Below, piece by piece: positions 4,427 to 27,145 of a stretch of DNA of 50,769 bases. How positions within the stretch are numbered: position 1 is the stretch's first letter; each line of letters starts with the position of its first letter. This DNA is from an uncultured delta proteobacterium. GTDB lineage: Bacteria > Desulfobacterota > Binatia > UBA9968. The position numbers and the translations under genes are program-made. Under the pieces are notes generated by a model, which made no database searches, was not told the origin of the DNA, and saw only the letters and a program-made list of their open reading frames with translations. Location: the NCBI GenBank assembly GCA_963840855.1, contig CAWJBB010000076.1:1-50769 (forward strand), written 5' to 3'.

Positions 4427-4430
4427 AATT

Positions 4431-4512: not shown

Positions 4513-4518
4513 TATTTG

Positions 4519-10751: not shown

Positions 10752-10771
10752 CCTTTATTCTCCTTCGCCGA

Positions 10772-10890: not shown

Positions 10891-10892
10891 CT

Positions 10893-12071
10893 TCATTTCA
10901 ACTTTCCGCGCCGCGTTAGAGCAAACAACAACCCGGCGGCTTGCAGCGCTGCCAGAGCGAGAAACATGGTCGCGTAACCTGCGGCTTCGACCATGGCGCC
11001 GATGAAAATCGAGCCGACGCCATAGGCGAGTGGATAGGAGAGAGAAAAAGTCGCCATGGCTTTGCCGCGCCGGTGCGGATCCGCGCGCTCCATGGCAAGG
11101 GCCAAGGTGGCCGAGCTGCCGATGGCGTTGCCGAGCATGTACAGCGCGCCGGACATCATGATGCCTGCCAAAGCTGTGACCATGACCACCAGCACCAGGG
11201 CGCACATTTGCAGCGCAAAGCCCAAGGCCACACAAACGCCGCGGCCGATGCGGTCCGAGGCGCCGCCCAGCAATGGCCGGGCGAGCAAGCTGGTAGCGCC
11301 GCTTACGACGAAATAAGCGCCGAGGTTTTCGATACCGATCGTGCCGGCATAAAGGACGATAAAGTTTATCACTGCGGGCCAAGTGATGTTGAGCCAAAAG
11401 AGCAGCCCCGATGGCAGCAGGATCTCCGGCTCGACAAAGCGGAAAAGTTCGCGCCACCATTTGGTGTCGTCCCGGGAACGGCGATGGGCAACCGGCGGCG
11501 TCTGCCGGGCCACGGCCCAGCCTGCTAATGCTCCCGCGAACGAGAAGAGCGCCGTCGCCGTGAACACCAAGCCGAATCCGCCCCAGCTTGCCGCGACCAG
11601 CCAAAGCGCGAGGGCTGGAAAAAAAATGTTGGAAGCACTCTGTACACCGCTGTAATAACCCGACGCTTCACCGCGTCGCGTTTCCGGTGACGTTCGGGCG
11701 AGCAGAGAATACCCGCCGGTGTTGAGCGCTGCCCAGCCAATGCCGCGTAGCCCGTTGGCGAGCATTGCGGCCTCGGCCAGCGGAATCAAGCAAAAAAAGA
11801 TGGTGACGCCTTGAAAGAGCAGCCCGGAGATCATTACGCCGGTTTCGCTCCAGCGGTCGGCCCAGTGGCCGACCGCTGGGCGAATCAAGACGCTGGTGGC
11901 GGCGAAACAGAAAAGCACCACGCCGACGATGAACGGCGAGCCGCCGAGTTGGGTCACGTAAAGCGGCAGAGCAGGCGACAACATGGCATGTTGCGCGTAG
12001 CCGAGGAACTGCACAATGCAGAGCAGCACGAAGGCGCGCGTCCAGATGGAGTCGGATTTTGTCGCTGTCAT
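10893..12071 (-). CDS. MFS transporter
   Basis: About 12 hydrophobic segments; GHWADRWS and GGASDRIGR motif-A loops; PETRRGEASG. Confidence 0.9.
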   Translation of the reverse strand: MTATKSDSIWTRAFVLLCIVQFLGYAQHAMLSPALPLYVTQLGGSPFIVGVVLFCFAATSVLIRPAVGHWADRWSETGVMISGLLFQGVTIFFCLIPLAEAAMLANGLRGIGWAALNTGGYSLLARTSPETRRGEASGYYSGVQSASNIFFPALALWLVAASWGGFGLVFTATALFSFAGALAGWAVARQTPPVAHRRSRDDTKWWRELFRFVEPEILLPSGLLFWLNITWPAVINFIVLYAGTIGIENLGAYFVVSGATSLLARPLLGGASDRIGRGVCVALGFALQMCALVLVVMVTALAGIMMSGALYMLGNAIGSSATLALAMERADPHRRGKAMATFSLSYPLAYGVGSIFIGAMVEAAGYATMFLALAALQAAGLLFALTRRGKLK

Positions 12072-12157
12072 GCGTTTGGAGATTGGCAAGCGGATTGAAC
12101 CGGCGCGGATCTTATGGTCACTAACCCGCGCTGCAATGAATAGCAAGGCTTGGTAGT

Positions 12158-12270: not shown

Positions 12271-12861
12271 CTACCTGAGCGAGGAGTAATACGCGGCCAG
12301 GGCGGCGAGATCGGCTCCGCTGAGCGGTTTCAGCATCGCTTTCTTTGCTTCATCGACCGCGGTGTCGTCTAACTTGCGTTTGTTATCTTTGAGAATCGCA
12401 AGCTGGATCTGGAGGTAGCCGCCGGGCTGTCCTTGAATCGCCGGGACGGCGCGAAAGGCATCGCCTTCGCCCTTCGACCCATGGCAAGCCGCGCACTGTG
12501 CGGCGAGCGCCGCGCCGCGCTTGACGGCGTCGGGGTCCGGCTTAGTCCTGGGCGGTTGCTTCTGTTGCACGGCGAAATAATCAGCGACCTCATCGAGACC
12601 AACTTGCAGCACGTATTTCGAGTACGGCTCCATTTCCGGTGACGGCCGTTTCCCCTCGGCGTAGTCTTTGATCGCCTTCTTGAAATAGCTGGGCGGCATG
12701 CCCGCGATGATCGGTATGGTATTCCCCGGACTGTTGCCCGCGAACCCGTGGCAGGCGCTGCAGACCATGGACTTCTGCGCGCCTGGAGAGTCCAGCGGGC
12801 CGGCAGCGGCGTCGAAAGTCGCAAATATGAGAGCGAGTGTAACAAGTAGATAAGTCAGCAT
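12271..12861 (-). CDS. fccA: Diheme cytochrome c (c4-like), probable cytochrome subunit of flavocytochrome c sulfide dehydrogenase
   Basis: Signal peptide; CSACH and CAACH haem motifs with downstream Met residues; directly follows the flavoprotein gene. Confidence 0.8.
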   Translation of the reverse strand: MLTYLLVTLALIFATFDAAAGPLDSPGAQKSMVCSACHGFAGNSPGNTIPIIAGMPPSYFKKAIKDYAEGKRPSPEMEPYSKYVLQVGLDEVADYFAVQQKQPPRTKPDPDAVKRGAALAAQCAACHGSKGEGDAFRAVPAIQGQPGGYLQIQLAILKDNKRKLDDTAVDEAKKAMLKPLSGADLAALAAYYSSLR

Positions 12862-12874
12862 GAATCCATCCTTT

Positions 12875-14119
12875 CTAACCCAAGACGTCATTCCAGATAC
12901 TGGTGCGCCAAACGAGCGAATTCTGGGCGGTGATTACGCTCTTGCCCGGCGTGAGCTTCTGTTCGATCTGCACGACTTTGCCGTTTTCGATCTTGTAGGC
13001 GTTCACCACCGCGATGGCTTCCCTGTCGTTGACCCAGCTGTAGCAGGTATTGCCCGGCGGGATTTGCGGCGGTTCTTTGCCGTTGAGGAGGCTCACCACC
13101 GCCGTGGCGCAGACCTTGCCCATGGCATTGGCCACGTTGCCGGACTTCGGCACCGGTAAGCCAATCGTGGAGTCGCCGACGACGTGAATGTTTTTGTGTT
13201 TCACCGATTCGTAAGTGACGTGATCGACTTCGCACCAGCGCTTGTCTCCGCCGACGAGGTCCGCCTCAACGGCGATGGCGCCGGCGCGCTGCGGCGGGAT
13301 GAGATTGATCACGTCGTACTTGACCTTGTCGCCGGCGTCGGTCGTAATTTCCTTTCCACTCACGTCGATCTTCTCGGCTTTCTGCGCAGGGCGGTAGTCG
13401 AGATTGGGATAGTCTTTGAATACCGCCTTGAACAGGCCCGTTTTCGACACGATATCCTTGTTGGCATCGAGGACGATCAGCTTCGCCTTCGGCTTTTTCG
13501 TCTGCAAATACCAGGCAATCATGCTGGCGCGTTCGTAGGGGCCCGGCGGGCAGCGGTATGCAACCGGCGGCACGGTCATGACCACCACGCCGCCATCGGC
13601 CATGGACTGAATTTGCTTGGCAAGCTGGACGGTTTGCGGCCCGGCTTTCCAGGCATGGAGCACAGTATCTTTCGCTTGGACCAACCCGTCGACTTGTTCC
13701 CACTGAAAATCGATGCCCGGCGACACGATCAAGCGGTCGTATTCGAGGGAGTCCTTGCCGACACGCACGCGCCTCTTGTCGGCATCGATGGCGGCAGCGG
13801 CTTCGTGGCGAATTTTGACGCCGTACTTTTTCAGCCCGTTGTAATTCATGGTCAAAGTCTTCAGCGACTCGACCCCGGCCAAAACGAGATTGCTGAACGG
13901 ACAAGAAACAAATTCCTTGTTCGGCTCAAGCAGTGTCAGTTCTATGGAAGGATCGGTGAGCCTGATGTACTTCGCCGCCGTCGCTCCGCCCCAACCACCG
14001 CCGATGACGATCACGCGGCGCTTGGCTTCGGCGGCGAAGCTGGGAAAGTTGCCGATACCCAGCGTGGCGACGCTGAGCCCTGAAACTTTGAGAAATTTTC
14101 TGCGGCTTATGTCATTCAT
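12875..14119 (-). CDS. fccB: Flavocytochrome c sulfide dehydrogenase flavoprotein subunit (FccB/SoxF)
   Basis: Tat signal SRRKFLK; VIGGGWGG; CPFSN; RCPPGPYERA; PKSG; NTCYS, i.e. the Cys positions expected for this family. Confidence 0.92.
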   Translation of the reverse strand: MNDISRRKFLKVSGLSVATLGIGNFPSFAAEAKRRVIVIGGGWGGATAAKYIRLTDPSIELTLLEPNKEFVSCPFSNLVLAGVESLKTLTMNYNGLKKYGVKIRHEAAAAIDADKRRVRVGKDSLEYDRLIVSPGIDFQWEQVDGLVQAKDTVLHAWKAGPQTVQLAKQIQSMADGGVVVMTVPPVAYRCPPGPYERASMIAWYLQTKKPKAKLIVLDANKDIVSKTGLFKAVFKDYPNLDYRPAQKAEKIDVSGKEITTDAGDKVKYDVINLIPPQRAGAIAVEADLVGGDKRWCEVDHVTYESVKHKNIHVVGDSTIGLPVPKSGNVANAMGKVCATAVVSLLNGKEPPQIPPGNTCYSWVNDREAIAVVNAYKIENGKVVQIEQKLTPGKSVITAQNSLVWRTSIWNDVLG

Positions 14120-16470
14120 GACTTGTTCCTTTCGTTTGGCTCTGAGCTTCCTAGAATAGCTGGCGAAAAAGCGCGTCTAACCAGATTGAGTGCCGAACCC
14201 GCGCGAAACCATTCAAGTTGCGCCGCGCTGAACGAGTGATCGAGCCACAGTGTTTCGGCTGTGCGATTCGGAGTCTTCACAACACACTTAACCGGCTTAC
14301 CGGGGGCCATATCCGCCAAGCCAACCAGACTGATACGGCTATCCTCGTGAATCTGTTCGTAGGCCGCCGGGTCGCAAAATTTCAGGGCCAAGAGTCCCTG
14401 TTTTTTCAAGTTCGACTCGTGGATGCGCGCGAAGCTGCGGGCGATGATCGCAGCGCCACCGAGTAGTCTCGGCGAGAGCGCCGCGTGTTCGCGGCTGCTG
14501 CCTTCCCCGTAGTTATGGTCACCGATGACGACCCATTTGATGCCTTGCGCCCTGTAGTACCTAGCGATTTTAGAGAATGCAAGTGTTTTTTCGCCCGTCA
14601 CGACGTTCTTCCCTTTGCCGGTATCACCGGTGAAAGCGTTGGCCGCGCCCATAAACAGATTGTCGCTGAATTTGTCCAGGTGGCCGCGCAAGCTCAGCCA
14701 CGGGCCGGCGGGGGAAATGTGGTCCGTGGTAGTCTTGCCCCGAGTCTTGATGAGAACCGGCAGATCGACAAAGTCCTTGCCGTCCCACGCCGGCCAAGGC
14801 TTCAGAACTTGCAGCCTTTCACTGCGTGGAGAGATCTCTACTTTTGTGTTCATGCTGTCTTCAGGAGGAGCGACATACAAACTGCGACCACGTTCAAAGC
14901 GCTTTTTGGGCACCTCGGGTGCTCGCTTGGGAGCCTTTAGCCGGAAGGACTTGCCGCCGGCGCCCTTGAGTGAATCGGTCAGCGGATTGAACGACAATTT
15001 TCCAGCCAAGGCGAAAGCAGTGACGATCTCCGGGCTCGCGATAAAGTTCATCGTCGAAGGGTGGCCGTCGTTTCGGCGCGGAAAGTTGCGGTTGTACGAC
15101 GTTACGATGGTATTAGGCTTGCCCGTCATCTCCTGAGCTCGACGCCATTGACCGATGCATGGGCCGCAGGCGTTGGCTAAGACCACGGCGCCGACGTCAT
15201 TGAGCGACTGCATCTGACCATCGCGCTCAATTGTGGCTCGAACCTGCTCGGATCCTGGCGTGACGAAAAAGGGCACGGCCGCTTTTGCGCCGTGGGTCTT
15301 TGCTTGCTCCGTGATATCCGCCGCGCGGCTCATGTCTTCGTAAGAGGAGTTGGTGCAACTGCCAATCAGCGCAGCGGAAATTTCGTCGCAGAATAAGTTG
15401 CTTGGATCGGCGATTTCACCGGCGAGCTGGGAGATTGGACGGGCGCGATCAGGCGTGTGTGGTCCGACGACATGGGGCTCGAGTTTGGCCAGATCCAGCC
15501 GGATTACGCGGGTGTAGAATTTCTCAGGATCGGCCTCGACTTCCTCGTCAGGCGCGAGCAGGTGGCGATACCTTTGAATGCTGGACACGAAGGCGCCGCG
15601 TCCCGTCGCCTTTAGATATGAAACCATGCGTTCATCGGCGGGAAACATCGAAGTCGTTGCGCCAATCTCCGCTCCCATATTGCAGATTGTGGCTTTGCCG
15701 GTGGCGCTAATGGTTCGGGCTCCCGGGCCGATGTACTCCACGATCGCATTGGTGGCGCCGCTGACGGTCAGCTCGCCGGCCACGTAAAGAATCACATCCT
15801 TTGGCGCGGTCCACCCGTTCAGTCGGCCGGTCAGGTAAACCGCGATGTGATTCGGATAGAGTAGTTCCCACGGCAGGCCGGCGATTACCTCGACGGCGTC
15901 GGCGCCGCCGACTCCGACGGCACATGCCCCAAGTCCGCCCGCGTTAGGCGTGTGCGAGTCAGTGCCAATAATCAACGCGCCGGGGAAGGCGTAATTTTCC
16001 AGCACGACCTGATGGATGATTCCCGCCCCGGGTTGCCAAAAACCTATCCCGTACTTGGCGGCGGCCGAGCGCAGGAAGTCATAAACCTCCCGGTTCTCTT
16101 CGAGGGAGTCGAGGAGATCGGCTTCTCCGGCAAGCCTCGCCTGGATCAAATGGTCGCAGTGAATCGTCGTTGGCACAGCGACTTTGTCGCGGCCGGTTTG
16201 CATGAACTGAAGCATCCCTGTTTGACCCAGCACGTCCTGGAAGACGACCCGATCGGGGCGAAGCGACAAGTAACTTCGGCCTGGTTCGAGCTCCTGGTTT
16301 TCAGAATCCTGGAGATGGCCGAGCAAAACCTTGTCGGCTAACGTTAACGGTTTGCGGAGTCGCCGGCGCGCGACCTCAAGATTGTGCGTCATCGTCTGGT
16401 AGATTTTCGCTGCCATCTCGGCAGTTGATTCGACACTAAACATGCTCAGGTATTTCTTGTGTATTCGCAT
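14116..16470 (-). CDS. acnA: Aconitate hydratase, mitochondrial-type AcnA family
   Basis: TIHCDHLI, GTDSHTPN, IGSCTNSSYED, ANACGPCIGQW, TTDHISPAG and GEGSSREHAA motifs; exact start uncertain (16470, 16443 or 16416). Confidence 0.93.
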   Translation of the reverse strand: MRIHKKYLSMFSVESTAEMAAKIYQTMTHNLEVARRRLRKPLTLADKVLLGHLQDSENQELEPGRSYLSLRPDRVVFQDVLGQTGMLQFMQTGRDKVAVPTTIHCDHLIQARLAGEADLLDSLEENREVYDFLRSAAAKYGIGFWQPGAGIIHQVVLENYAFPGALIIGTDSHTPNAGGLGACAVGVGGADAVEVIAGLPWELLYPNHIAVYLTGRLNGWTAPKDVILYVAGELTVSGATNAIVEYIGPGARTISATGKATICNMGAEIGATTSMFPADERMVSYLKATGRGAFVSSIQRYRHLLAPDEEVEADPEKFYTRVIRLDLAKLEPHVVGPHTPDRARPISQLAGEIADPSNLFCDEISAALIGSCTNSSYEDMSRAADITEQAKTHGAKAAVPFFVTPGSEQVRATIERDGQMQSLNDVGAVVLANACGPCIGQWRRAQEMTGKPNTIVTSYNRNFPRRNDGHPSTMNFIASPEIVTAFALAGKLSFNPLTDSLKGAGGKSFRLKAPKRAPEVPKKRFERGRSLYVAPPEDSMNTKVEISPRSERLQVLKPWPAWDGKDFVDLPVLIKTRGKTTTDHISPAGPWLSLRGHLDKFSDNLFMGAANAFTGDTGKGKNVVTGEKTLAFSKIARYYRAQGIKWVVIGDHNYGEGSSREHAALSPRLLGGAAIIARSFARIHESNLKKQGLLALKFCDPAAYEQIHEDSRISLVGLADMAPGKPVKCVVKTPNRTAETLWLDHSFSAAQLEWFRAGSALNLVRRAFSPAILGSSEPNERNKS

Positions 16471-16519
16471 GGATCATCCTTTCTCGCTCAATTTGGCTGA
16501 CTCACGGCACAGTCGCAAT

Positions 16520-16584
16520 GGGACTGCCGTCCCGATCGTGCAAAAATATCTTTGTCAACCGCGGGAAAGTGGGACTACAGTCCC
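16520..16584. promoter_or_regulatory. Two GGGAC-N4-GTCCC palindromes, candidate operators for the adjacent LuxR-type regulator
   Basis: GGGACTGCCGTCCC (16520-16533) and GGGACTACAGTCCC (16571-16584), starts 51 bp apart, upstream of the aconitase. Confidence 0.6.
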
Positions 16585-16594
16585 GGAGGGTGAG

Positions 16595-17668
16595 TCACTC
16601 GGGGTTTTTTCCGAAGCCGGCATCGCGGGCGAGGACGATGGCTTGGGCGCGAGTTTCGACTTTGAGTTTGGCGAAGATGCTGGTGATATGATTGCGCACG
16701 GTTTTCTCGCTTAGAGAAAGTTGCGCGGCGGCTTGGGTGTTGTCCAAGCCGCGTGCTATCAGTTCCATGAGTTCGCGCTCGCGTGGCGTGAGGTCGGCAA
16801 AGGCTGGACCGCCGATGACCTCTTTCGGCAGGAATGCCCGCACTTCGTCAAGCCAGCGTCGCCATGCCGATTCCTGCTCCAGCAAGATTTGATTGCGGCT
16901 GTCGAGCGGAACAAACCTCGCTCCCGGAATCAGACTGGCCATCAACCGGCCCTCATCGAACGGCACCCTTGCGTCCCCGGTTGAGTGCAAGATCAACGTC
17001 GGACAGGAGATCTTATGGGTGAGCGCGGCGACGTCGACTTGATAGAGAATACGGAGAATCCGCGCGGCGTTTTCCGGCGAGGTTGACATACGTTCCAGTT
17101 CGTTGAACCAACGATGCTGCTGGGGTGTGCCGTCGGGGATGAATTGAGTGGTGAAGAGCTGACGGAACGCAGGATTTTCTTTGCCCCAGCCCAGCTCGAT
17201 GAGCCGGGCCATGCTCTCGTCCAGTTCGCGCTGCTGCTGCGTGGTTTTTCGCTTCAAACGGCCGCGCGCGAAACCGCCGTGCAGGATCAAGTGACTGACC
17301 CGCTCCGGATGGCGCGCGGCGTAAGCGATGGCGACCGCTGCGCCGCCTAACATTCCGAGGAGTGGAAAACGTTTGACGCCGACCGCGTCCACCACGGCTT
17401 CCAGATCGCCCACCCAGGCGTCGAACGACTGTTTTGAAACATCCCAATCCGAGAGCCCGCAGCCGCGAACGTCGTAGCGGATAAACATGTGGTCGCGGGA
17501 AAGCTCAGTGAGCCAGCTGCGCCATACCGGGCTGTTCCAATCGAACTCTAGATGGGTGAGCCAGTTGGCGGCTTTGACGAGTGGTGGCCCATGCCCCGAT
17601 GTCGCGTAGGCGATACGCACCCCGTCGGCGGTTTTGCAGAAACGAATACGTTGATTGGAGCTTGTCAT
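16595..17668 (-). CDS. Alpha/beta-hydrolase fold fused to a LuxR-type HTH transcriptional regulator
   Basis: DGVRIAYA, NWLTHLEFDW and RYDVRGCGLSD motifs; C-terminal LTPRERE..LIARG...LSEKTVRNHITSIFAKL; start 17668 or TTG 17704. Confidence 0.9.
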   Translation of the reverse strand: MTSSNQRIRFCKTADGVRIAYATSGHGPPLVKAANWLTHLEFDWNSPVWRSWLTELSRDHMFIRYDVRGCGLSDWDVSKQSFDAWVGDLEAVVDAVGVKRFPLLGMLGGAAVAIAYAARHPERVSHLILHGGFARGRLKRKTTQQQRELDESMARLIELGWGKENPAFRQLFTTQFIPDGTPQQHRWFNELERMSTSPENAARILRILYQVDVAALTHKISCPTLILHSTGDARVPFDEGRLMASLIPGARFVPLDSRNQILLEQESAWRRWLDEVRAFLPKEVIGGPAFADLTPRERELMELIARGLDNTQAAAQLSLSEKTVRNHITSIFAKLKVETRAQAIVLARDAGFGKNPE

Positions 17669-17839
17669 CGGCAAGGGCTCCGACGAGATCGGATTAGATC
17701 GCAAAGCCTGGTTGCGGTCAACTTGCGCGACGAAGGCCGCAATTAATGCGCTTGAGAGAAATTTGACACTGATCCTCTACCAAGAAAACGGACGGGTTGA
17801 TTGACTGCGCCGAATTTATTAGATTTGTTGACAGCGTTT

Positions 17840-18379
17840 ATGGATTTCACTGAACTTTTCAAAGATGACGTCCGTATCGGCAGAAGAACATTTTTGCGGG
17901 TGATAACCGCGGTGCTCGCGTTCGTTGGCACCGCGAAGGATATTCTCTTCACCGCGAGAGCCGACGCGCAAAGCGTTGCTACGGGGCTGCCGTTGCCCGA
18001 CGAATTGATCGAAGCGACAATGAAGCGGTTGTTCGGCAACCGGACTCTCCAACCCGGTGCCGGCAAGATCAAGTTAGACCTGCCGCTCATCGCCGAAGAC
18101 GGCGGAAACGTCGCCGTGACTATCGAAAGCGACCTGCCCTTGGGTGGCGCGACGCACCTTAACCACATCTACATAATCTCAGACAAAAACCGCCGCCCCA
18201 TGCTGGCCAAGTTTACTTTCACGCCTGAGTCGGGCAAGGCTTTTGTTTCCACGAGCGTCCGTTTGGCGACAAGCACCGACGTGCGGGCGATTGCGGAGAT
18301 GAGCGATGGGACGCTTTATGCCGCCAGCAAGAACGTGCGGGTGACGATCAGCGGCTGCGATGTGCCGCCGCAAGGCTAA
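17840..18379 (+). CDS. soxY: SoxY-like sulfur carrier protein with an atypical C-terminus
   Basis: Tat-like GRRTFLR; PLIAEDGGNVAV, DKNRRP, VRLATSTDVRAIAE and VRVTISGC motifs; precedes soxZ. Confidence 0.85.
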   Translation: MDFTELFKDDVRIGRRTFLRVITAVLAFVGTAKDILFTARADAQSVATGLPLPDELIEATMKRLFGNRTLQPGAGKIKLDLPLIAEDGGNVAVTIESDLPLGGATHLNHIYIISDKNRRPMLAKFTFTPESGKAFVSTSVRLATSTDVRAIAEMSDGTLYAASKNVRVTISGCDVPPQG

Positions 18380-18390
18380 ATATGCTCGGC

Positions 18391-18435
18391 AGTTCAAATC
18401 GTTCAAGACGTTCAAGCGGTTCAAGTCGTTTAACC
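18391..18435. repeat. 9-mer array (GTTCAANNN) between soxY and soxZ
   Basis: GTTCAAATC GTTCAAGAC GTTCAAGCG GTTCAAGTC GTTTAACCC. Confidence 0.8.
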
Positions 18436-18474
18436 CTAAAACGGCGATCGGATGTTATTTGACGGGTTGAGGAT

Positions 18475-18807
18475 ATGGCGGAAGTAGGCAGAGTCAGCAT
18501 TCGTATTCCTTCCAGCATCAAGCAGGGCGACGTCGTTCGCGTGCGCGCGCTGGTGATTCATCCGATGGAAATCGTCCAGCGGGACAAGCAGGGAAAGATC
18601 ATCAGTAAGAACTACCATTTCATTCATTCGCTGGCCGTCGCCTTCAACGGCAAGGAAATCATGCGCGCGGAAACTACCCAGGCGATCAGCCAGAATCCGT
18701 CCTTTACGTTTCCGCTTAAAGTTGACAAACCGGGGAAGCTGACGATCACGTTTTCGGATACGACGGGGAAGAGTTACGAGGGCAGCGAGGAGATCAAGTT
18801 CGCTTAG
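18475..18807 (+). CDS. soxZ: Sulfur carrier protein SoxZ
   Basis: VRALVIHPME, HFI and AISQNPSFTF motifs; no signal peptide; GAGG RBS. Confidence 0.88.
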   Translation: MAEVGRVSIRIPSSIKQGDVVRVRALVIHPMEIVQRDKQGKIISKNYHFIHSLAVAFNGKEIMRAETTQAISQNPSFTFPLKVDKPGKLTITFSDTTGKSYEGSEEIKFA

Positions 18808-18854
18808 AGGCCCGCGCTATCATTCCCGCCACTGCACCGATTCCGGCTTCAATC

Positions 18855-20066
18855 ATGGTCTCCAGACCGATGACGTTCGGCGGTTTTCTCAGCGATCAGC
18901 AAGCGAGAATCTTTGGGCAACCTTGGCCCGTTATTCCATCGGCGTTGGTTATCGCCGCCCTCAATGTTTTCCTTTTCGCCTTCGACCGGCCGTGGACGGC
19001 GTCCGACGGCCTGCGCAACTGGGGAGATGCGTTGCTGCAAGTCATGGGCGTGATTAATCAACCCGATCTCCTGCCGCCGCTGCTTTACTCCGGTTCATTG
19101 CTGAATCTCGGTGTGATGCTCGGTGGCCTGGTGGCCGCGTTGTTGAGCCGGGAATTTGGCATTCGAACTGCGCCGCCAAAGGAACTTCTCAAAGCCACGT
19201 TCGGCGGTTTGCTCATGGGTTGCGGAGCTATGCTTTCCTTCGGCTGCAATATCGGCGGCTTCTTTAGCGCGCTATCGGCCCTGTCGGCGAGCGGCCTCTC
19301 CATGATGGCTGGGCTCTCCGTCGGGGCTTATTTCGGAACGCGTTACATCATTCGTGAACGGATCAAACTACTCGACACGGGTCAAACGGGGTTCCTCTCT
19401 CCCTGCGAGACGCCGACGCGGCCAGCCGTTGGTTCAACTGCTTTCCGGGTTCAGCCGGTGCTAGGAACTATCCTGCTACTGGCTCTAATCGGCGCCGCGT
19501 TCGTTTATCGACAGCTGGGGCATGTACCATTGGCCACGTTTCTTTTTTTCGGACTCGCTTTCGGTTTCGTTTTCCAGCGGTCGCGCTTCTGCTTCGTTAA
19601 CGCTTTTCGCGAGCCGTTTTTGAGCGGCGAAAGCCTGCACGCGCGGGCCGCTGCTCTAGCTCTGACGCTGAGCATGATTGGCTTCTCGATATTGAAGGCC
19701 ACAGATTTGAGAGACGCCTCCGAATGGGTTTTTCCTTCCTTCTGGTTTGGTTCATTTGTTGGCGGGACTCTTTTTGGGTTGGGCATGGTGCTGGGTGAAG
19801 GTTGCGGCGCCGGGTCGATCTGGCGCGCCGGTGAAGGTCACATCAAGCTTTGGGTGGCGCTTTTCTTCTTCGCGATTGGCGCGTCCCTTGCGAGGTTAGT
19901 GCTCGTGGGGTCGGATCTGATCAGCCATTTGGGTATGCCTGTCTTTCTGCCGAATATGATCGGATGGGCAAGCGCGCTGTGGAGTGTTGTGCTTTTCATG
20001 GTGATCTGGTATTTGCTCTCCGCCTGGAATGAACAACGCCGGAGCGCTGGCGTGATAAAGCTCTGA
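18855..20066 (+). CDS. YeeE/YedE family sulfur-compound transporter
   Basis: Very hydrophobic; GGLLMGCGA..SFGCNIGG, FQRSRFCF and GMVLGEGCGAG Cys motifs. Confidence 0.88.
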   Translation: MVSRPMTFGGFLSDQQARIFGQPWPVIPSALVIAALNVFLFAFDRPWTASDGLRNWGDALLQVMGVINQPDLLPPLLYSGSLLNLGVMLGGLVAALLSREFGIRTAPPKELLKATFGGLLMGCGAMLSFGCNIGGFFSALSALSASGLSMMAGLSVGAYFGTRYIIRERIKLLDTGQTGFLSPCETPTRPAVGSTAFRVQPVLGTILLLALIGAAFVYRQLGHVPLATFLFFGLAFGFVFQRSRFCFVNAFREPFLSGESLHARAAALALTLSMIGFSILKATDLRDASEWVFPSFWFGSFVGGTLFGLGMVLGEGCGAGSIWRAGEGHIKLWVALFFFAIGASLARLVLVGSDLISHLGMPVFLPNMIGWASALWSVVLFMVIWYLLSAWNEQRRSAGVIKL

Positions 20067-20082
20067 TCGTCAAGCAAAAGCA

Positions 20083-20766
20083 ATGAGAATCGCGGCATCG
20101 AAGCCAATTCGCTTCACCGTCAACGAAACAGCCGGCAAAGTTTCCGGCGTACTGCGCGCGCCGCATGGGGCCAACGCGTTGCTTGCGCTGGCCCACGGCG
20201 CGGGCGCCGGCATGCGCCACCATTTCATGGAAGACGTGGCCGACAAATTTGCCGGTCTCGGCATCGCCACGCTGCGCTACCAGTTTCTGTACATGGAGAA
20301 GGGAATTAAAAGGCCCGATAGTGAAGCGTTGCTGACTACAACGGTTCGCGCTGCCCTGGCCGCGGCGCGAGAACAGGGACCGGATCTGCCGCTCTTTGCC
20401 GGTGGCAAATCGATGGGTGGACGCATGACGTCCATCGCCGCCGCCAAAGGGTTCCTCGAAGGCGTCCGCGGGCTGGTTTTTTTCGGCTTCCCGCTGCATG
20501 CGGCGGGAAGGCCCGGCGCGGAGCGGGGTAAACATTTGTTTAACGTAAGAGCGCCCATGCTTTTTCTCCAGGGCTCGCGGGACAGCTTGGCCGATTTGCG
20601 CCTGCTCGAGCCGGTATGCAAGGGCCTCGGCAAAAAAGCCGAGCTGTTTGTCGTCGAAGGCGGCGATCATTCGTTTCACATGCTCAAAAGCTCGGGACGT
20701 TCGGACGACCAAGTGTTGGATGAAATAGTGAGCAAAGCGGCGGCGTGGATGAGAGGGCTTGCATAG
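20083..20766 (+). CDS. Alpha/beta hydrolase (KANL3/Tex30-like)
   Basis: AHGAGAGM, GGKSMGGRM nucleophile elbow, QGSRD and GDHSF motifs. Confidence 0.88.
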   Translation: MRIAASKPIRFTVNETAGKVSGVLRAPHGANALLALAHGAGAGMRHHFMEDVADKFAGLGIATLRYQFLYMEKGIKRPDSEALLTTTVRAALAAAREQGPDLPLFAGGKSMGGRMTSIAAAKGFLEGVRGLVFFGFPLHAAGRPGAERGKHLFNVRAPMLFLQGSRDSLADLRLLEPVCKGLGKKAELFVVEGGDHSFHMLKSSGRSDDQVLDEIVSKAAAWMRGLA

Positions 20767-20775
20767 GCCTCTGGC

Positions 20776-20933
20776 CGTTCAAAGTTCAATGTTCAAGGTT
20801 CAAAGTCCGCGCCTTCGGATTCGACCAATGCATGCGGTGGTGGACGCAACGTTTGCGGCAAAATGCTCAATCGCCGGAGAAGCGCGAGCCACGTTCGGAA
20901 AACCTTGAACTTTGAACCTTGAACCTCGAACTG
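20776..20933. repeat. GTTCAAN heptamer-array element with a spacer of about 90 bp
   Basis: Four GTTCAAN units on the left; CCTTGAAC TTTGAAC CTTGAAC CTCGAAC on the right. Confidence 0.8.
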
Positions 20934-20953
20934 GTATTTGTTCGATGTGATTC

Positions 20954-21442
20954 ATGTACCCCACGACTGAAAAGGAAGCGCTCGAGGCGCTGAAAGGCGA
21001 CGATGTTGAGCTAGCCGCCACCGCCGAGGCGATTCTCTGGCGCACTTGGTGCCGTTCGGCGAATTCTGAAATCGACAGAATTTTTCGCGCCGGTGTCGAT
21101 GCCATGCAAAATCGCCGGCTGGAAGACGCCGAGTCATTCTTCGCAACCGTCATTGACGCGGCGCCGGAGTTTGCCGAGGGCTGGAATAAGCGAGCGACGG
21201 TCCGCTACATGCGCGATAACTTTCACGGGTCGATCGCCGATTGCCAAGCGACTTTGGTGCGTAACCCAAACCATTTTGGCGCGGCGTCCGGTCAGGGACT
21301 TTGCCATCTGTCGCTGGGACAGTATCGTGAAGCCGCGATTTGTTTCCGCCGGGCGTTGGAGATTCATCCGCATTTGCACGGCGCGCGCCATAACCTGGCC
21401 CTCGCGGAAGCGGCAGGCGGAGGCAGCGGCTATCTGCATTAG
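20954..21442 (+). CDS. Tetratricopeptide repeat protein
   Basis: PEFAEGWNKRATVRY, NPNHFGA..GQGLC and AAICFRRALEIHP repeats. Confidence 0.85.
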   Translation: MYPTTEKEALEALKGDDVELAATAEAILWRTWCRSANSEIDRIFRAGVDAMQNRRLEDAESFFATVIDAAPEFAEGWNKRATVRYMRDNFHGSIADCQATLVRNPNHFGAASGQGLCHLSLGQYREAAICFRRALEIHPHLHGARHNLALAEAAGGGSGYLH

Positions 21443-21497
21443 TCGCCGGAGATGGCTGGGATTTGGTGCTGGCACCGGATATCAGGAAGCTGCGACT

Positions 21498-21537
21498 CTC
21501 CGGAGCTCCACACTCCGGACGTTGAACTTTGAACTCC
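21498..21537. repeat. Solo right arm of the GTTCAAN heptamer family
   Basis: Reverse complement reads GGAGTTCAAAGTTCAACGTCCGGAGTGTGGAGCTCCGGAG. Confidence 0.6.
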
Positions 21538-21541
21538 AATT

Positions 21542-21994
21542 ATGATGTCGAAAAAATGTAAATACGCGCTCAAAGCACTGATCTGCCTGGCAAAAGATTA
21601 TGGCGGCGGCAGCCTCTTTATTGACGATATTGCCAAGTCGGAGCATATACCAAAAAAATTTCTCGAATTGATTCTTCTCGATCTAAAACACGCGGGATAC
21701 GTGCGCAGCAAGCAGGGCGCAAAGGGGGGCTACCGACTGGTCCAGGATCCGAGCCAGATCAGCCTGGCGGAGATTTACCGGTTATTCGACGGCGCCATTG
21801 CGCTGGTGCCATGCGTGTCGCAGAAGTTTTACGAACAATGCGACGATTGTCCCGACGAGAAAACCTGCCGCCTCAAGAAAGTTTTCATCGACGTGCGCGA
21901 CAAAACCTACGAGTTGCTGTCGGGCATTACCATTGAATCTTTCCTGAGCCATCCCCAGTCGCGCAAGTTCTTGAGAAACAAGAGCAAAATTTAG
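21542..21994 (+). CDS. Rrf2 family transcriptional regulator with four C-terminal Cys
   Basis: YALKAL, IPKKFLELIL and SKQGAKGGYRL motifs; CVSQKFYEQCDDCPDEKTC. Confidence 0.92.
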   Translation: MMSKKCKYALKALICLAKDYGGGSLFIDDIAKSEHIPKKFLELILLDLKHAGYVRSKQGAKGGYRLVQDPSQISLAEIYRLFDGAIALVPCVSQKFYEQCDDCPDEKTCRLKKVFIDVRDKTYELLSGITIESFLSHPQSRKFLRNKSKI

Positions 21995-22019
21995 TGGCAA
22001 TTTTCTTGCTGCCGGGTGC

Positions 22020-22065
22020 TTGACAGAGCTGCGTTAATTTAATATCTAGTAATTCAATAGAGTTA
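22020..22065 (+). promoter_or_regulatory. Promoter with a probable Rrf2-type AT-rich operator upstream of the sulfate uptake operon
   Basis: TTGACA at 22020-22025; imperfect inverted repeat AATATCTA-GTAATTCAA-TAGAGTTA over the -10 region. Confidence 0.55.
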
Positions 22066-22127
22066 ATGGAATCACTCGCAATTTAGCTAACGTAGACGTT
22101 TTGAACCGTGCTGTAGAGGGTTCGAAG

Positions 22128-22496
22128 ATGACTCAACTGCAACGACCCGGATGGAAAATGGGAAGACTGCTTCAGGGCTTGTCGAGCCAGACCGATACCG
22201 AGGGTCCGGTTAGCGCAAAAACGGACGCGGCGGTTGTGCGGCTGATCGATTCTCCGCGCCGCGCGCCGGCTACGCCGATCGAACAGCGGCTGATATCCAC
22301 GCTCAGAGAAACCGAATCGGTTTCATTTGCGAGGCTCGTGAACGCGGTTTCGGCGGATCTTTATGCCGAAGAGTTACGCACGGGTGCCGGAGCCTTGGAC
22401 ATCGGATTGTTCGGCAGCCGCTTGTTTAATGGCGACGTCATTCGAGAGTTGAAAGCTGGGGATGGAATCTTGTGGAAAATAGGGGAACTAAAGTGA
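22128..22496 (+). CDS. Hypothetical protein (about 122 aa), first gene of the sulfate transporter operon
   Basis: GAGGG RBS; its stop overlaps the GTG start of sbp (GTGA). Confidence 0.6.
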
Positions 22497-23494
22497 CTTC
22501 TAAACAATTGAGTTTGCTACTAACAGGGCTCAGCCTCTTGTTGGCAGGTGAGATCTACGCGCAAAAGACGCTGCTCAACGTTTCCTACGATCCCACGCGG
22601 GAACTTTATAAGGAATTCAATCCAGCCTTTATCAAACACTGGCAGGCCAAGACGGGCGAATCGATTTCGTTCAAGCAAGCCCACGGCGGCTCCGGCTCCC
22701 AGGCACGGGCAGTGATCGACGGCCTTGAAGCGGACGTGGTGACGTTGGCTCTGGCTGGCGATGTCGACGCGATTGCGAACAAAGGGCTTCTTTCTGCCGA
22801 CTGGCAAAAGCGCCTGCCGTGGAACAGCGCGCCATACACATCGGCTATTGTATTCCTGGTGCGCAAAGGGAACCCCAAGGGCATTCGAGATTGGTCCGAT
22901 CTGGTAAAGGCGGGCATTTCCGTCATCACGCCGAACCCTAAGACCTCCGGCGGCGCCCGCTGGAATTACCTCGCGGCGTGGGGCTACGAGTTGGCCAGAA
23001 CGAAAAAGAACGAGTCGAAAGCGATGGAGTTCGTCACGGCGATATACAAAAACGTTCCCGTGCTCGACTCGGGGGCCCGCGGCTCGACAACTACTTTTGT
23101 AGAGCGCGGCATTGGCGACGCGTTCATCTCGTGGGAGAACGAGGCCTTTCTCGCGGTCAACGAGCTGGGCAAAGACAAGTTAGAGATCGTCGTGCCATCG
23201 ATAAGCATTTTGGCCGAACCGACTGTGGCGGTGGTCGACAAGGTCGTGGATAAGCGCAAGACCCGCGCCATAGCGCAGGCTTACCTGGAATATTTGTATT
23301 CACCCGAAGGGCAGGAGATTGTGGCTAAGCACTACTACCGGCCGCGGCTGTTGGAGACCGGTAAGAAGTACGCGAAGAACTTCGCCCAGGTGAAACTCTT
23401 TACGATCGATGAAGTCTTCGGCGGCTGGACGAAGGCTCACAAGCAGCATTTTGCCGATGGTGCCGTCTTCGATCAAATCTATCAGCAGAAATAG
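22493..23494 (+). CDS. sbp: Sulfate/thiosulfate ABC transporter substrate-binding protein
   Basis: [52 protein letters not shown] and WENEA motifs. Confidence 0.96.
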
Positions 23495-23513
23495 CTCGAT
23501 TAGAAACCCCGCC

Positions 23514-24344
23514 ATGATTCGAACTATCCGCCAGCACAGCATTCTTCCGGGATTTGGCCTGACGATGGGCTTCACCATTTTCTATCTGAGCCTGATCGTG
23601 CTGCTGCCGCTGGGCGCAGCTTTCTTGAAGACGTTTGCCATGGGCTGGACGGAATTCTGGGAAACGGTTACGGGGGCGCGTGCCTTGGCATCGTATCGTT
23701 TGAGCATCGGCGCCTCGTTGATCGCGGCCAGTATCAATAGCGTGCTGGGCTTGCTGGCGGCCTGGGTGCTGGTGCGTTACGAGTTTCCCGGCAAACGCAT
23801 CGTGGACGCGCTGATAGATCTGCCGTTTGCCCTGCCGACGGCGGTGGCCGGCATTACGCTGACCGCCATGTTCGCGGGCAACGGCTGGGTTGGGAGTTGG
23901 CTCGAGCCGCTGGGCATCAAGGTCGCTTTTACCTGGCTGGGTGTGGTAGTGGCCCTGACGTTCATCGGCTTGCCGTTCGTTGTCCGCACGGTCCAGCCGG
24001 TGCTGCAAGAATTGGATCCGGAAATCGAGGAGGCCGCGGCGACGTTGGGCGCGGGGCGCTGGCAATCCTTGAGGAGAGTCATATTTCCCGAACTATTGCC
24101 GGCGTTATTGACCGGCTTTGCGCTGGCTTTTGCGCGGGCGGTCGGTGAATACGGCTCAGTGGTCTTTATCTCGGGCAACATGCCAATGAAAACCGAGATC
24201 ACGCCGCTCCTGATCATCACCAAGCTCGCGCAGTACGATTACAGCGGGGCTACGGCGCTGGCGGTGGCTACGCTGACGATGTCCTTCGTCTTGCTGCTTT
24301 TCATCAACCTGCTCCAGTGGTGGAGCCGAACGAGATACGCATAA
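23514..24344 (+). CDS. cysT: Sulfate ABC transporter permease CysT
   Basis: [41 protein letters not shown] and GEYGSV motifs. Confidence 0.96.
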
Positions 24345-24399
24345 ACCGCATGGCACTCAATAGCGCAAGCAATGGAAATACCCGGAGGGGGCCACAGGC

Positions 24400-25242
24400 A
24401 TGAGCGAGCCGCGCTGGGTTCGCGCCATCCTGATTACCGTGGCGCTTCTGTTCTTGGGGCTTTTCCTGCTCTTGCCGTTGATCGTTGTGTTCAGCGAAGC
24501 TTTCAAGAAAGGCGTCGAAGTCTATCTGGAGTCCATCCGCGAACCGGATGCTACAGCCGCGATCCGATTGACGTTGACCGCGGCGGTCATCGCGGTACCG
24601 CTCAATTTGATTTTTGGCGTTTCCGCGGCCTGGGCCATCGCAAAATTTCAGTTCCCCGGCAAGAGTTTTCTCATTACATTGATCGATCTGCCCTTCTCCG
24701 TCTCGCCGGTCATCTCGGGACTTGTTTTTGTGTTGTTGTTCGGTCTTCAAGGCTGGCTCGGGCCGTGGCTTGCCGAACACGAAATCAAGATCATTTTCGC
24801 CGTGCCCGGAATCGTCCTGGCGACTATCTTCGTTACCTTTCCGTTTGTCGCGCGCGAGCTGATCCCGTTGATGCAGTCGCAGGGAAGTGAAGAAGAGGAA
24901 GCGGCGCAAACTTTGGGCGCCGGGGGCTGGCAGACGTTCTGGCGCGTGACTCTGCCTAATGTCAAATGGGGTCTCCTGTACGGCGTGATTCTGTGCAACG
25001 CGCGGGCGATGGGAGAGTTCGGGGCGGTTTCCGTGGTTTCCGGCCATATCCGCGGAGCCACCAATACCATCCCGCTCCACGCCGAGATCCTCTACAACGA
25101 ATACAACTCCGCGGCGGCTTTTGCCATGGCGTCGTTACTTACCATTCTGACGCTGGTGACGATCGCGCTCAAAGCGTGGATCGATCGGAAGTCGCAGATC
25201 GAAGTACGAGAAGTTCCAGAGCGAGCATGGGTGGAGGGATAG
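24400..25242 (+). CDS. cysW: Sulfate ABC transporter permease CysW
   Basis: [23 protein letters not shown] and [20 protein letters not shown] motifs. Confidence 0.96.
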
Positions 25243-25243
25243 C

Positions 25244-26305
25244 ATGAGCATCGAGATACGCGCCATCAGAAAAAGTTTTGGCAACTTCGCGGCGCTGAAG
25301 GACGTGAGTTTCAAGGTCGAAACCGGAGAGTTGGTGGCGCTCCTCGGGCCGTCCGGCTCCGGGAAAACCACGCTCCTCCGAATGATCGCCGGGATCGAGG
25401 TTCCCGATGGCCGCGATGGCGCGATTCTTATCCACAACGAAGATACAACGGCGTTCAGCGTCCGCGACCGCAGAGTCGGATTTGTATTTCAACACTATGC
25501 CTTATTCCGCCATATGACGATCTTCGAGAACGTCGCCTTCGGACTCAGGGTCCGCCCGCGCCGCGTGCGGCCGTCCGAGAAAGTAATCAAAGAAAAAGTG
25601 AATGAGCTCTTGAAGCTCGTGCAGTTGGATTGGCTCGGCGACCGCTTGCCGTCCCAACTTTCGGGCGGTCAGCGGCAGCGAATCGCGTTGGCGCGCGCTC
25701 TCGCGGTGGAGCCCAGCGTGCTGCTCCTGGACGAGCCCTTCGGGTCCCTCGACGCCAAGGTTCGAAAAGAGCTGCGCCAGTGGCTCAGGCGCTTTCACGA
25801 TGAGTTGAAAATCACCAGCGTCTTTGTCACGCACGATCAGGAGGAAGCCTTGGAGGTCGCCGACCGCGTGGTCTTGATGAACGAAGGCCGGGTCGAGCAG
25901 GTGGGCACGCCGGAGGAAGTCTATCATCACCCGGCCAATGCGTTCGTTTACAACTTTCTCGGCAACGTCAATCTTTTTCACAGCCGCGTCGAAGAGGGAA
26001 AAGTTTATCTCGGGGAAATGCCCATCGACTTGCCGGCTGAAAGCACGCCGGATGCCAAATCTGCTCTGGTGTTTGTCCGCCCGCACCTATTGGAAATCGA
26101 ACATCAACGCAACGGCGGCGACAACTTCCACGCCAAGGTGACCCATATCAACGCCGCCGGTCCTCTGGTCAAGGTCGATCTGGTTACTGACTGGGGAGAC
26201 CCGGTGCAGGTGGAGTTATCGCATGGAAAATACCTGTCTCTTGGTTTGAAGCGAGACGATGAGGTATTTGTGCGGCCCAGGGAAAGAAAGATTTTCCTTC
26301 AATAG
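25244..26305 (+). CDS. cysA: Sulfate ABC transporter ATP-binding protein CysA
   Basis: [26 protein letters not shown] and LLLDEPF motifs; TOBE-like C-terminus. Confidence 0.96.
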
Positions 26306-26373
26306 AAAAGAATCATCACGTGGGGCGACAGCGCGCGAAAGTAGACGCGCACTGCAATCCTCGCCCCCGCTAC

Positions 26374-26403
26374 TTGACCTTCCTGCCGAGCCCACCGTAT
26401 AAA
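26374..26403 (+). promoter_or_regulatory. sigma70-like promoter of the FMN reductase gene
   Basis: TTGACC-N18-TATAAA, followed by AGGAGG RBS. Confidence 0.55.
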
Positions 26404-26432
26404 GTGACGACCCATTTATCGCAGGAGGATGA

Positions 26433-26990
26433 ATGAGTATTCGGGTAGCGGGAATTGCCGGAAGTCTGAGAGCGGGTTCATTGAACAAGGGACTGCTGCG
26501 CGCGGCAGTGGAATCGGCGCCGGCGGTGATGGAAATCGCCATCTTCGATCGGCTTGGCGATATCCCGGCGTATAACGACGATGTCTTTGCCAAAGGCGAT
26601 CCCGAGCCGGTGGCCGACATGAAGGCATTCATCGGCGGCGCCGACGCGCTGCTGATCGCCACGCCGGAATACAATTACGGCGTGCCGGGTGTGCTCAAGA
26701 ACGCCATCGATTGGGCGTCGAGGCCCGCCGGAAAGTCAGTTCTTAACCGCAAACCTGCGGCGATCATGGGCTGTTCGCCGGGGCTTGGTGGCACCATTCG
26801 CGCGCAGCATGCGCTGCGGCAGAGCTTCGTTTTCACCGACACCTATGTCATGTCGCAGCCGGAGATCAAGATTCCCTCCGCGGCGCAGCTGTTTGACGAA
26901 ACGGGCAAATTGATCGATGAAAGCACGCGCCAGTATATAAGAAAATTTCTTGAGGCTTTCGTCGTTTGGATCGGCCGGTTCCAGGTTTAG
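26433..26990 (+). CDS. NAD(P)H-dependent FMN reductase (ChrR/SsuE-like flavodoxin fold)
   Basis: GSLRAGSLN and ATPEYNYGVPGVLKNAIDWASRP motifs. Confidence 0.92.
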   Translation: MSIRVAGIAGSLRAGSLNKGLLRAAVESAPAVMEIAIFDRLGDIPAYNDDVFAKGDPEPVADMKAFIGGADALLIATPEYNYGVPGVLKNAIDWASRPAGKSVLNRKPAAIMGCSPGLGGTIRAQHALRQSFVFTDTYVMSQPEIKIPSAAQLFDETGKLIDESTRQYIRKFLEAFVVWIGRFQV

Positions 26991-27102: not shown

Positions 27103-27145
27103 CCACCGCAACGTGAAGTATCAATTACCAACCAGGGGGTTATCT

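Follow-up and report, generated by a model that had tools for sequence, protein, structure and literature searches.

A conserved fccAB-soxYZ-yeeE gene module in genomes without Sox enzymes and its proposed role in sulfur transfer across the cytoplasmic membrane

The sequence analyzed in this study, referred to as the window, is the whole of contig CAWJBB010000076.1 (C76; 50,769 nucleotides) of an uncultured delta proteobacterium of the Binatia. The assembly to which it belongs (GCA_963840855.1; G000) has a size of 7.1 Mb in 93 contigs and is 94.17% complete with 8.27% contamination. Five core genes were located in the window. The genes fccA (12271-12891) and fccB (12875-14119) lie on the minus strand, and soxY (17801-18379), soxZ (18475-18807), and yeeE (18855-20066) follow one another on the plus strand. 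The actual unit at this locus consists of these five genes, fccA-fccB plus soxY-soxZ-yeeE, and is called the module below. All genes named in the original prediction, which was made from the letters of the window, were recovered in the open reading frame (ORF) listing and the family scans where they had been placed; two further genes between fccB and soxY, encoding an aconitase and a hydrolase-LuxR fusion, had been overlooked.

The conservation of the module was tallied in 25 genomes of the family, comprising this genome and 24 others and including G009 and G015, neither of which has the module. SoxY was found in nine of these genomes, FccB in eight, and the YeeE orthologue in six, and all six YeeE-holding genomes contained both FccB and SoxY. 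The three SoxY holders without a channel match (G005, G007, and G019) each had a contig end at the locus, and the 16 genomes without SoxY had none of the three genes, apart from a weak paralogue in G009. A leftward fccB-fccA pair back to back with a rightward soxY-soxZ-yeeE run was present in G005, G012, G014, G017, and G024. The two halves were separated by a 6.6-kb insert in G013, and the aconitase and LuxR fusion genes of the window represent an insert of the same kind.

For a wider survey, a collection was scanned with an alignment of the channel (A1), and 80 loci were fetched and sorted by gene order and identity into classes B, R, and S; the classes were defined from the pattern itself, so that their separation describes the loci but tests nothing. 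Record titles were mostly Binatia, "Deltaproteobacteria," or Thermodesulfobacteriota in the B class (13 loci), mostly Rokubacteria/Methylomirabilota in the R class (48 loci), and mostly SAR324 and Gammaproteobacteria in the S class (19 loci). Among the B-class loci, fccB lay within 2.5 kb of yeeE in 10 of 13 and soxZ within 400 bp in 12 of 13; the corresponding soxZ-yeeE gap in the window is 47 bp. In the R class, where adjacency was judged within an 8-kb flank, fccB was found in 39 of 48 loci (35 of these within 400 bp downstream of the channel gene) and fccA in 38, and soxY together with soxZ in only 10. The S-class loci contained soxY in 13 of 19, soxZ in 13 of 19, and fccB in one. Altogether, FccB or SoxY/SoxZ was encoded in the flank of 68 of the 80 channel loci; ten of the remaining 12 end at a contig edge beside the gene, and two (L085 and L087) have room for these genes but contain none of them.

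The grouping of fccAB, soxYZ, and yeeE is far beyond chance, and the expected co-occurrence of these genes in other genomes was upheld by the six family genomes as well as by the 68 loci. The B-class loci are related, hence synteny within this class is weak evidence by itself and would also be seen if the genes had remained neighbors by descent with no joint function. This explanation is extremely unlikely, since linkage of the channel to FccAB or to SoxYZ recurs in three gene orders and the record titles span phyla, from Binatia through Rokubacteria/Methylomirabilota to SAR324 with Gammaproteobacteria. The stretch was also matched in metagenome runs of 10 studies, in which the DNA runs were labeled soil, bog, or plain metagenome. 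Four RNA-labeled runs from soil and rhizosphere (three studies) gave short contigs of 151-368 nt that were at least 92% identical to fccA/fccB, the aconitase gene, the LuxR fusion gene, soxY, soxZ, the channel gene, and the hydrolase gene. This is a weak hint that the module is expressed, as DNA carry-over is possible in such libraries.

Judged by their sequences, fccA and fccB encode the periplasmic dihaem cytochrome c and FAD subunits of a flavocytochrome c sulfide dehydrogenase (FCSD). FccB matched the FCSD domain families PF21706 (125.8 bits; cut-off 27) and PF09242 (38.1 bits; cut-off 26), and its best solved matches were 5n1t_A (E 4.5e-97), 1fcd_A (1.4e-94), and 3vrd_B (3.4e-89). The stretches CPFSNLVL, RCPPGPYERAS, and TCYS are kept in FccB, identical or nearly so to those of 5n1t_A in the alignment, and we take their cysteines to be those of the covalent FAD and the redox-active pair. 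A twin-arginine translocation (TAT) signal (TIGR01409) was found on FccB, as expected for export to the periplasm. The dihaem partner is encoded by fccA, which overlaps the end of fccB and carries a signal peptide and two CxxCH motifs (PF00034, 60.9 bits). The two genes adjoin each other in 9 of 13 B-class and 38 of 48 R-class loci.

SoxY and SoxZ are both encoded in single copy in this genome. The soxZ gene starts 95 bp downstream of soxY, and its product belongs to the SoxZ family (PF08770, 81.7 bits; TIGR04490, 82.3 bits, over the cut-off of 76). SoxY is TAT-exported and matched PF13501 (116.1 bits), but it scored 117.6 bits against the SoxY_true_GGCGG model (TIGR04488), for which the cut-off is 125. 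Its C-terminus reads ...VTISGCDVPPQG, and the tail ISGCDVPPQG places six residues after the carrier cysteine. Translation of soxY probably begins at the ATG at 17840; most database homologues have a length of 179 aa. The best 120 of 489 homologous SoxY clusters all had a cysteine followed by exactly six residues (120/120), and GGCGG is replaced in this large subfamily by the arm SGCD[LV]PPxx, mostly SGCDLPPQG or SGCDLPPQS. SoxY had been called atypical in the original prediction, and both the score and this tail bear that out.

The tails differed among the classes. They were extended in 11 of 12 B-class SoxY sequences, the other being the GGCGG of L043, and of the GGCGG type in all 10 R-class sequences (eight exactly GGCGG, SGCGG in L081, and SGCAA in L102). 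In the S class, the cysteine was the last residue (AAGGC) in 15 of 16 sequences, and in channel-less soxYZ-fccAB loci from another family of the order the tails were GGCG or GGC. A published survey of SoxY arms deleted sequences without "GGC," according to the portion of the article available (PMC11237559), so the extended-arm subfamily would be missed by it. The string GCDLPP did not occur in the literature searched, nor was a description of the subfamily found there.

The product of yeeE is a YeeE/YedE-family membrane channel of 403 aa that matched PF04143 (184.6 bits) in two stretches and is encoded once in this genome. Its best solved match was the YeeE of S. thermophila (6leo_A, E 2.2e-22), with the halves swapped: residues 228-345 aligned to 4-119 of 6leo_A and residues 75-147 to 237-309, and the same exchange was seen with Pfam. 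Among NCBIfam models, the best was NF033796 (YedE/FdhT), the only collinear one (residues 19-396), with 141.7 bits against a cut-off of 350; the curated TsuA/YeeE models gave 119.1 bits (NF052577; cut-off 400) and 95.5 bits (NF041049; cut-off 645). Three cysteines, Cys131, Cys246, and Cys317, align to the pore cysteines of 6leo_A, whose numbering was taken from the accessible part of PMC11582611, and are invariant in all 81 relatives. A fourth, Cys184 in the central loop, was found only in B-class rows (13 of 14). In a FastTree tree of 81 channel sequences, the 13 B-class rows minus L043 formed a clade with support of 100, and the extended tail is present in all 11 loci of that clade with an identified soxY; outside it lies L043, with its GGCGG tail. 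A joint change of SoxY tail and channel clade is suggested by this pattern, but no more than suggested, because the tree shows it as a single event.

We searched the whole genome with profiles for the enzymes with which SoxYZ normally works. SoxA and SoxB gave no match; SoxX gave six weak cytochrome matches, the best with 34.3 bits and none over the cut-off of 61; SoxC gave one match of 43 bits against a cut-off of 420. The best DsrA match had 22.8 bits against 392.85. The lack of Sox enzymes stated earlier thus applies both to the window and to the entire assembly, and the SoxAX and SoxB partners of a canonical SoxY were not found above cut-off in this genome at its completeness of 94.17%. 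SoxB exceeded its cut-off of 550 bits in none of 41 related genomes, including the module-bearing G012, which is 100% complete; the best match among them, in G031 (432.6 bits), adjoins a different SoxY. The incompleteness of the assembly would leave space for an ordinary Sox pathway served by this SoxYZ in an unassembled part of the genome, and a complete pathway elsewhere had been named at the outset as a finding that would overturn the prediction. None was found within the limits of the incomplete assembly, and given the profile results, the SoxB count in the relatives, and the non-GGCGG tail in all 120 listed SoxY homologues, we consider a hidden pathway very unlikely. That fccAB, soxYZ, and yeeE form a conserved unit working without SoxAX, SoxB, and SoxCD is supported.

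The gene contexts of the channel in other lineages include cytoplasmic sulfur enzymes. In the R class, the operon consists of genes for a PALP enzyme, an EF-G-like protein, a persulfide dioxygenase (PDO) fused to rhodanese, the channel, FccB, FccA, TauE, a SoeBC-like protein (a ferredoxin::NrfD fusion), and a SoeA-like molybdopterin oxidoreductase, sometimes followed by soxY-soxZ and a SoxB-like 5'-nucleotidase. The S-class locus L075 (5497-15978) encodes a PDO::rhodanese fusion, two small PmpA/B-like proteins, the channel, a beta-propeller protein, SoxY-like, SoxB-like, and SoxZ-like proteins, and a cytochrome c; the SoxB-like protein, encoded between soxY and soxZ, scored 418.2 bits against 550. 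DUF302, SCO1, and thioredoxin-like proteins are also encoded in S-class loci of SAR324 and gammaproteobacterial origin. From the R- and S-class contexts, the channel family repeatedly sits between periplasmic sulfur oxidation and cytoplasmic enzymes that convert sulfane sulfur to sulfite and then sulfate.

Genes for such enzymes were also detected in this genome. A PDO::rhodanese::YgaP fusion is encoded on C75 (11569-12831), a PDO on C40 (350946-351665) that is 67% identical to the PDO beside the G014 module, and SoeBC-like (intact, 512 aa) and SoeA-like proteins on C40 (371828-376205) that are 72-77% identical to those of G014; an SQR-like (sulfide:quinone oxidoreductase) gene is located on C46, and TusA and DsrE are encoded on C50. 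A repeat of about 145 nt at 10754-10897 of the window occurs on at least 16 other contigs, C40 and C75 included, among the matches listed. Because this repeat is common to all of them, the window contig, C40, and C75 can be assigned to one organism despite the contamination figure. The repeat is dispersed, with 49 further high-scoring segment pairs of which the full-length ones are 89-100% identical, is mostly intergenic-looking, and resembles an element of the miniature inverted-repeat transposable element (MITE) or repetitive extragenic palindromic (REP) kind.

We consider it somewhat probable that sulfide is oxidized in the periplasm by this system, that the sulfane sulfur is carried on SoxY and imported through the channel, and that it is then oxidized to sulfate in the cytoplasm. 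FccAB would oxidize sulfide in the periplasm and pass the electrons to c-type cytochromes. The resulting sulfane sulfur would be bound, in persulfide or polysulfide form, to the only cysteine of SoxY (Cys186) within the SoxYZ complex; SoxY is able to carry Sn chains, and SoxY(S)nZ species exist and are usable by the Sox pathway, according to the available text of PMC5336275. The channel, encoded directly after soxZ, would move the SoxY-held sulfur across the membrane, after which rhodanese and PDO could convert it to sulfite and the SoeABC-like enzyme could convert sulfite to sulfate. A relay from periplasm to cytoplasm, as originally proposed, fits the gene contexts best. The purpose proposed with it, assimilation instead of oxidation, is less likely, since oxidation of sulfide to sulfate is indicated by the rokubacterial operon with PDO-rhodanese, TauE, and Soe genes and by the PDO, PDO-rhodanese, and Soe-like genes of this genome.

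A more specific version of this relay is possible but doubtful. FccAB would persulfidate the extended-arm SoxY, the arm would dock on the swapped-half channel of YedE architecture with its extra loop cysteine, and the sulfur would cross by thiol-persulfide exchange, the whole replacing the Sox enzymes. A three-chain complex of mature SoxY (residues 57-192), SoxZ, and the channel was predicted from a 12-row alignment per chain, with the channel as partner. The score was 0.56 (runs of 0.53, 0.56, and 0.58), the best of three controls scored 0.00, the runs shared at least 56% of contacts, and the partner pLDDT (predicted local distance difference test) was at least 82. Among 80 solved complexes, 58 attain the mark for this score, as do 2 of 110 mismatched pairs. 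The predicted complex lends weak support to an interaction between SoxYZ and the channel and counts slightly in favor of import of SoxY-held sulfur in general.

The same components might instead serve detoxification in the periplasm only, with FccAB and SoxYZ buffering sulfide as protein-bound polysulfide and with the channel importing thiosulfate or sulfite, or exporting sulfite or sulfide, instead of transferring the sulfur of SoxY. The PDB entry of the solved relative of the channel bears the name YeeE(TsuA), and the part of PMC11582611 available describes this protein as taking up thiosulfate; this would suit such a role, as would the TauE protein (annotated as a sulfite exporter) of the R-class operon and the frequent location of soxYZ away from the channel in R-class loci. 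However, the gap of 47 bp between soxZ and yeeE, the adjacency of these genes in 12 of 13 B-class loci, the joint change of SoxY tail and channel clade, and, as weak support, the complex score of 0.56 against 0.00 all argue for a connection between SoxYZ and the channel, and we regard detoxification alone as improbable.

Several observations weigh against import of SoxY-held sulfur followed by oxidation to sulfate. We infer that FccAB loads SoxY, that the channel works in the import direction, and that PDO and Soe act as the sink. The complex score lies in a weak band; the mark was attained with a score of 0.60 or less by only 7 of the 80 solved complexes and by both passing mismatches. The module is patchy, because four genomes of the same genus lack SoxY, FccB, and the channel. 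The 8-kb flank contained no soxYZ in 38 of the 48 R-class loci, and adjacent SoxYZ is therefore evidently dispensable for the channel and FccAB. Conversely, genomes of another family of the same order (f3, genus g23; L019, L020, and L011-L013) carry soxY-soxZ-fccA-fccB in one direction, and the channel was found in none of 11 f3 genomes; because soxYZ-fccAB occurs there without the channel, the three parts are not strictly obligate partners. No TusA domain, and thus no TusA-like partner of the TsuB/YeeD type, is encoded beside the channel in the window, and the only two TusA matches of this genome are both on contig C50. The PDO and Soe-like genes are unlinked to the module in this genome, and the SoeA-like gene (C40:371828-374648) is split into 841 and 121 aa in two frames where relatives have one ORF of 943-945 aa, which may reflect either an assembly error or a pseudogene. 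Finally, an assembly that is 94% complete and 8% contaminated cannot establish the absence of Sox genes with certainty.

Downstream of the module, the window contains a separate neighboring unit, rrf2-orf131-sbp-cysT-cysW-cysA (21542-26305, plus strand). The product of rrf2 (21542-21994) belongs to the Rrf2 family (TIGR00738, 114.3 bits; cut-off 73.3) and did not reach the cut-offs of the Rrf2 equivalogs CymR (the nearest, 71.3 bits vs 195), IscR (61 vs 207.55), and NsrR (37.4 vs 182). orf131 (22101-22496) had no Pfam or NCBIfam match. The sbp, cysT, cysW, and cysA genes (22472-26305) encode a sulfate ATP-binding cassette (ABC) transporter, all over the NCBIfam cut-offs: Sbp NF008022 543.8 bits (288), CysT TIGR02139 415.8 (246.1), CysW TIGR02140 419.9 (329.1), and CysA TIGR00968 385.6 (342.75), with cut-offs in brackets. 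Sbp is the sole homologue in the genome, and the transporter is its only Sbp-type sulfate uptake system. An inverted-repeat scan of 21400-22520, together with inspection of both intergenic stretches, gave short, weak palindromes only, and no operator site is claimed. Control of the transporter by Rrf2, as originally proposed, is supported as a matter of linkage, the regulator traveling with the transporter. orf131 is kept beside rrf2 with 55% identity in L037 and 51% in G016 (L118).

This neighborhood bears on whether the sulfur is scavenged for assimilation, FccAB passing it by way of SoxYZ and the channel to cysteine, methionine, or cofactor synthesis under Rrf2 co-regulation with the sulfate transporter. 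Both the window and L037 have the rrf2-(orf131)-sbp-cysT genes after the module, which adjoins the rrf2-orf131-sbp-cysTWA unit there, and in L036 and L040 the module is succeeded by rrf2 and then by the end of the contig. The nearest equivalog of this Rrf2, despite its low score, is CymR, and a PALP enzyme gene stands first in the rokubacterial operon. A cluster on C50 (41578-44081; L112:5579-8082) encodes a 200-aa TusA-domain protein, a DsrE-like protein, and a 506-aa TusA::MetE-like fusion of TusA and a cobalamin-independent methionine-synthase-like domain; it may represent a sulfur-relay route into methionine or homocysteine synthesis and would likewise suit assimilation. In contrast, the rrf2-sbp-cysT unit and the module are on different contigs in G024, and the unit is missing from L031, L033, and L038, where the tetratricopeptide repeat (TPR) gene is followed directly by the FMN reductase gene, and from L039, where it is followed by a metallo-beta-lactamase (MBL) gene. 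For these reasons, and because the transporter is also the only Sbp-type uptake system of the genome, it is a separable neighbor. The tie between module and sulfate transporter made in the original prediction was not upheld; the Rrf2-sulfate transporter genes are an independent assimilatory unit. Moreover, sulfide can be assimilated directly, without prior oxidation, and the recurrent partners of the channel, PDO-rhodanese, TauE, and Soe-like proteins, lead to sulfate. We therefore judge assimilation unlikely and favor oxidation to sulfate after import.

The remaining genes around the module are accessory or passenger genes. A mitochondrial-type aconitase (TIGR01340, 1012.7 bits; cut-off 825) is encoded at 14116-16470 (minus strand), and its stop codon shares 4 bp (ATGA) with the start of fccB. 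Twelve of the 13 B-class loci lack the gene at this point, and it is regarded as a passenger outside the module; L038 (6193-6688) retains a C-terminal remnant in two frames at the matching spot. This frameshifted remnant indicates that the insert is ancestral to the window and L038 and is decaying in one of them. The alpha/beta-hydrolase::LuxR-type helix-turn-helix fusion (16595-17704, minus strand; PF00196 and PF00561) is divergent from soxY, had no counterpart in the other B-class loci, and is lineage-specific, possibly with a role as a local regulator. An Abhydrolase_11 alpha/beta hydrolase without a signal peptide (20083-20766, plus strand; PF20408, 171.7 bits) is encoded directly after yeeE in 8 of 13 B-class loci and in none of 67 R- or S-class loci, and the small TPR protein (20954-21442, plus strand; TPR families) was found in 8 of 13 B-class loci.

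Beyond the transporter are an FMN reductase gene (26433-26990, plus strand; PF03358) and a gene for an exported MBL-fold protein of 498 aa (27113-28609, plus strand; PF00753), both regarded simply as syntenic neighbors in close relatives. The latter has a tandem paralogue at about 28726-30193 (plus strand) that is 72% identical over 358 aa, and MBL-fold genes are syntenic with the module in L031, L033, L038, and L039. A faint resemblance of the MBL-fold protein to SoxH-related metallohydrolases, with 36.9 bits against a cut-off of 280, was too weak for use. Downstream of fccA, a major facilitator superfamily (MFS) transporter gene is located in the window (10893-12146, minus strand), in L031, and in L033, where four to five tandem paralogues of it are present (1-4748).

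The system had been presented as undescribed. In concept it is not: a soxF-encoded flavoprotein of the FccB family reportedly stimulated Sox-dependent thiosulfate oxidation in vitro, and SoxT-type import is already in print. The word remains apt for the gene combination and the SoxY tail. No description of the five-gene module was found in the literature searched, although supplementary gene tables may mention it, and neither "sox" nor "thiosulfate" occurs in the available portion of the Binatota genome paper (PMC8262859). Novelty lies in the combination of these genes without Sox enzymes, in a SoxY subfamily with an extended arm, and in a channel whose halves are swapped and which has one additional cysteine; the family of each component and a YeeE-type importer behind periplasmic sulfur oxidation were already known.

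Sulfur microbiology has yet to establish how sulfur oxidized outside the cytoplasmic membrane enters the cell, and the only printed genetic evidence that we found for such import concerns SoxT1A of one alphaproteobacterium. The module offers a minimal test system that consists of just three parts, an enzyme, a carrier, and a channel, and is free of further Sox proteins, together with a natural series of tails that tracks the channel clade (GGCGG, cysteine plus six residues, and terminal cysteine). In aerated soils, which have few classical sulfur oxidizers, the route may be relevant to the turnover of sulfide. If the docking relay were true, SoxYZ would be the first periplasmic protein carrier that feeds a YeeE-family channel, and a major overlooked route of sulfide oxidation would exist in Binatia and Rokubacteria, the groups given in the record titles.

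Compared with known systems, FccAB resembles FccAB/SoxEF (1FCD, 5N1T, and 3VRD) in its TAT-exported FAD subunit, its FCSD central and C-terminal domains, and its dihaem cytochrome c, but it is paired here with SoxYZ and a membrane channel in genomes without SoxAX or SoxB. SoxYZ shares with the canonical complex of the Paracoccus pantotrophus type the SoxY and SoxZ folds, a TAT signal on SoxY only, and a single carrier cysteine near the C-terminus; it differs in the SGCD[LV]PPxx arm, the score below the SoxY cut-off, and the SoxAX, SoxB, and SoxCD partners, which were not found. The channel belongs to the same Pfam family as the TsuA/YeeE importers (S. thermophila 6LEO; YeeE-YeeD 8K1R) and has counterparts of their three cysteines. 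Unlike these, it is non-collinear, has low curated scores, and has no adjacent TusA-like YeeD/TsuB gene.

The closest parallel in concept is SoxT1A of Hyphomicrobium denitrificans, a YeeE/YedE-family membrane protein whose gene accompanies sox genes and whose proposed role is to hand periplasmic sulfur over to oxidation in the cytoplasm. According to the available text of PMC11582611, SoxT1A imports sulfur for this oxidation, as mutants cannot oxidize sulfur though the sox genes are transcribed, and SoxT proteins are 330-350 aa long and were surveyed only in soxXABYZ organisms. The channel of the window is also encoded beside soxYZ, but at 403 aa, without SoxXAB, and with its halves swapped; it is set apart from SoxT here on the basis of length and context. 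SoxT1A links periplasmic Sox to sHdr, whereas the window channel is linked to FccAB and PDO/Soe (no sHdr search was made here). The proposed path is also similar to the heterotrophic oxidation of sulfide by SQR or FCSD, PDO, and rhodanese, with small YeeE halves of the PmpAB type, in which sulfide is converted to sulfane sulfur and then by PDO-rhodanese to sulfite or thiosulfate. The R- and S-class loci likewise have PDO-rhodanese fusion genes next to that of the channel, and this genome encodes one such fusion. In contrast to the heterotrophic route, a protein carrier, SoxYZ, would be inserted here between the periplasmic enzyme and the channel.

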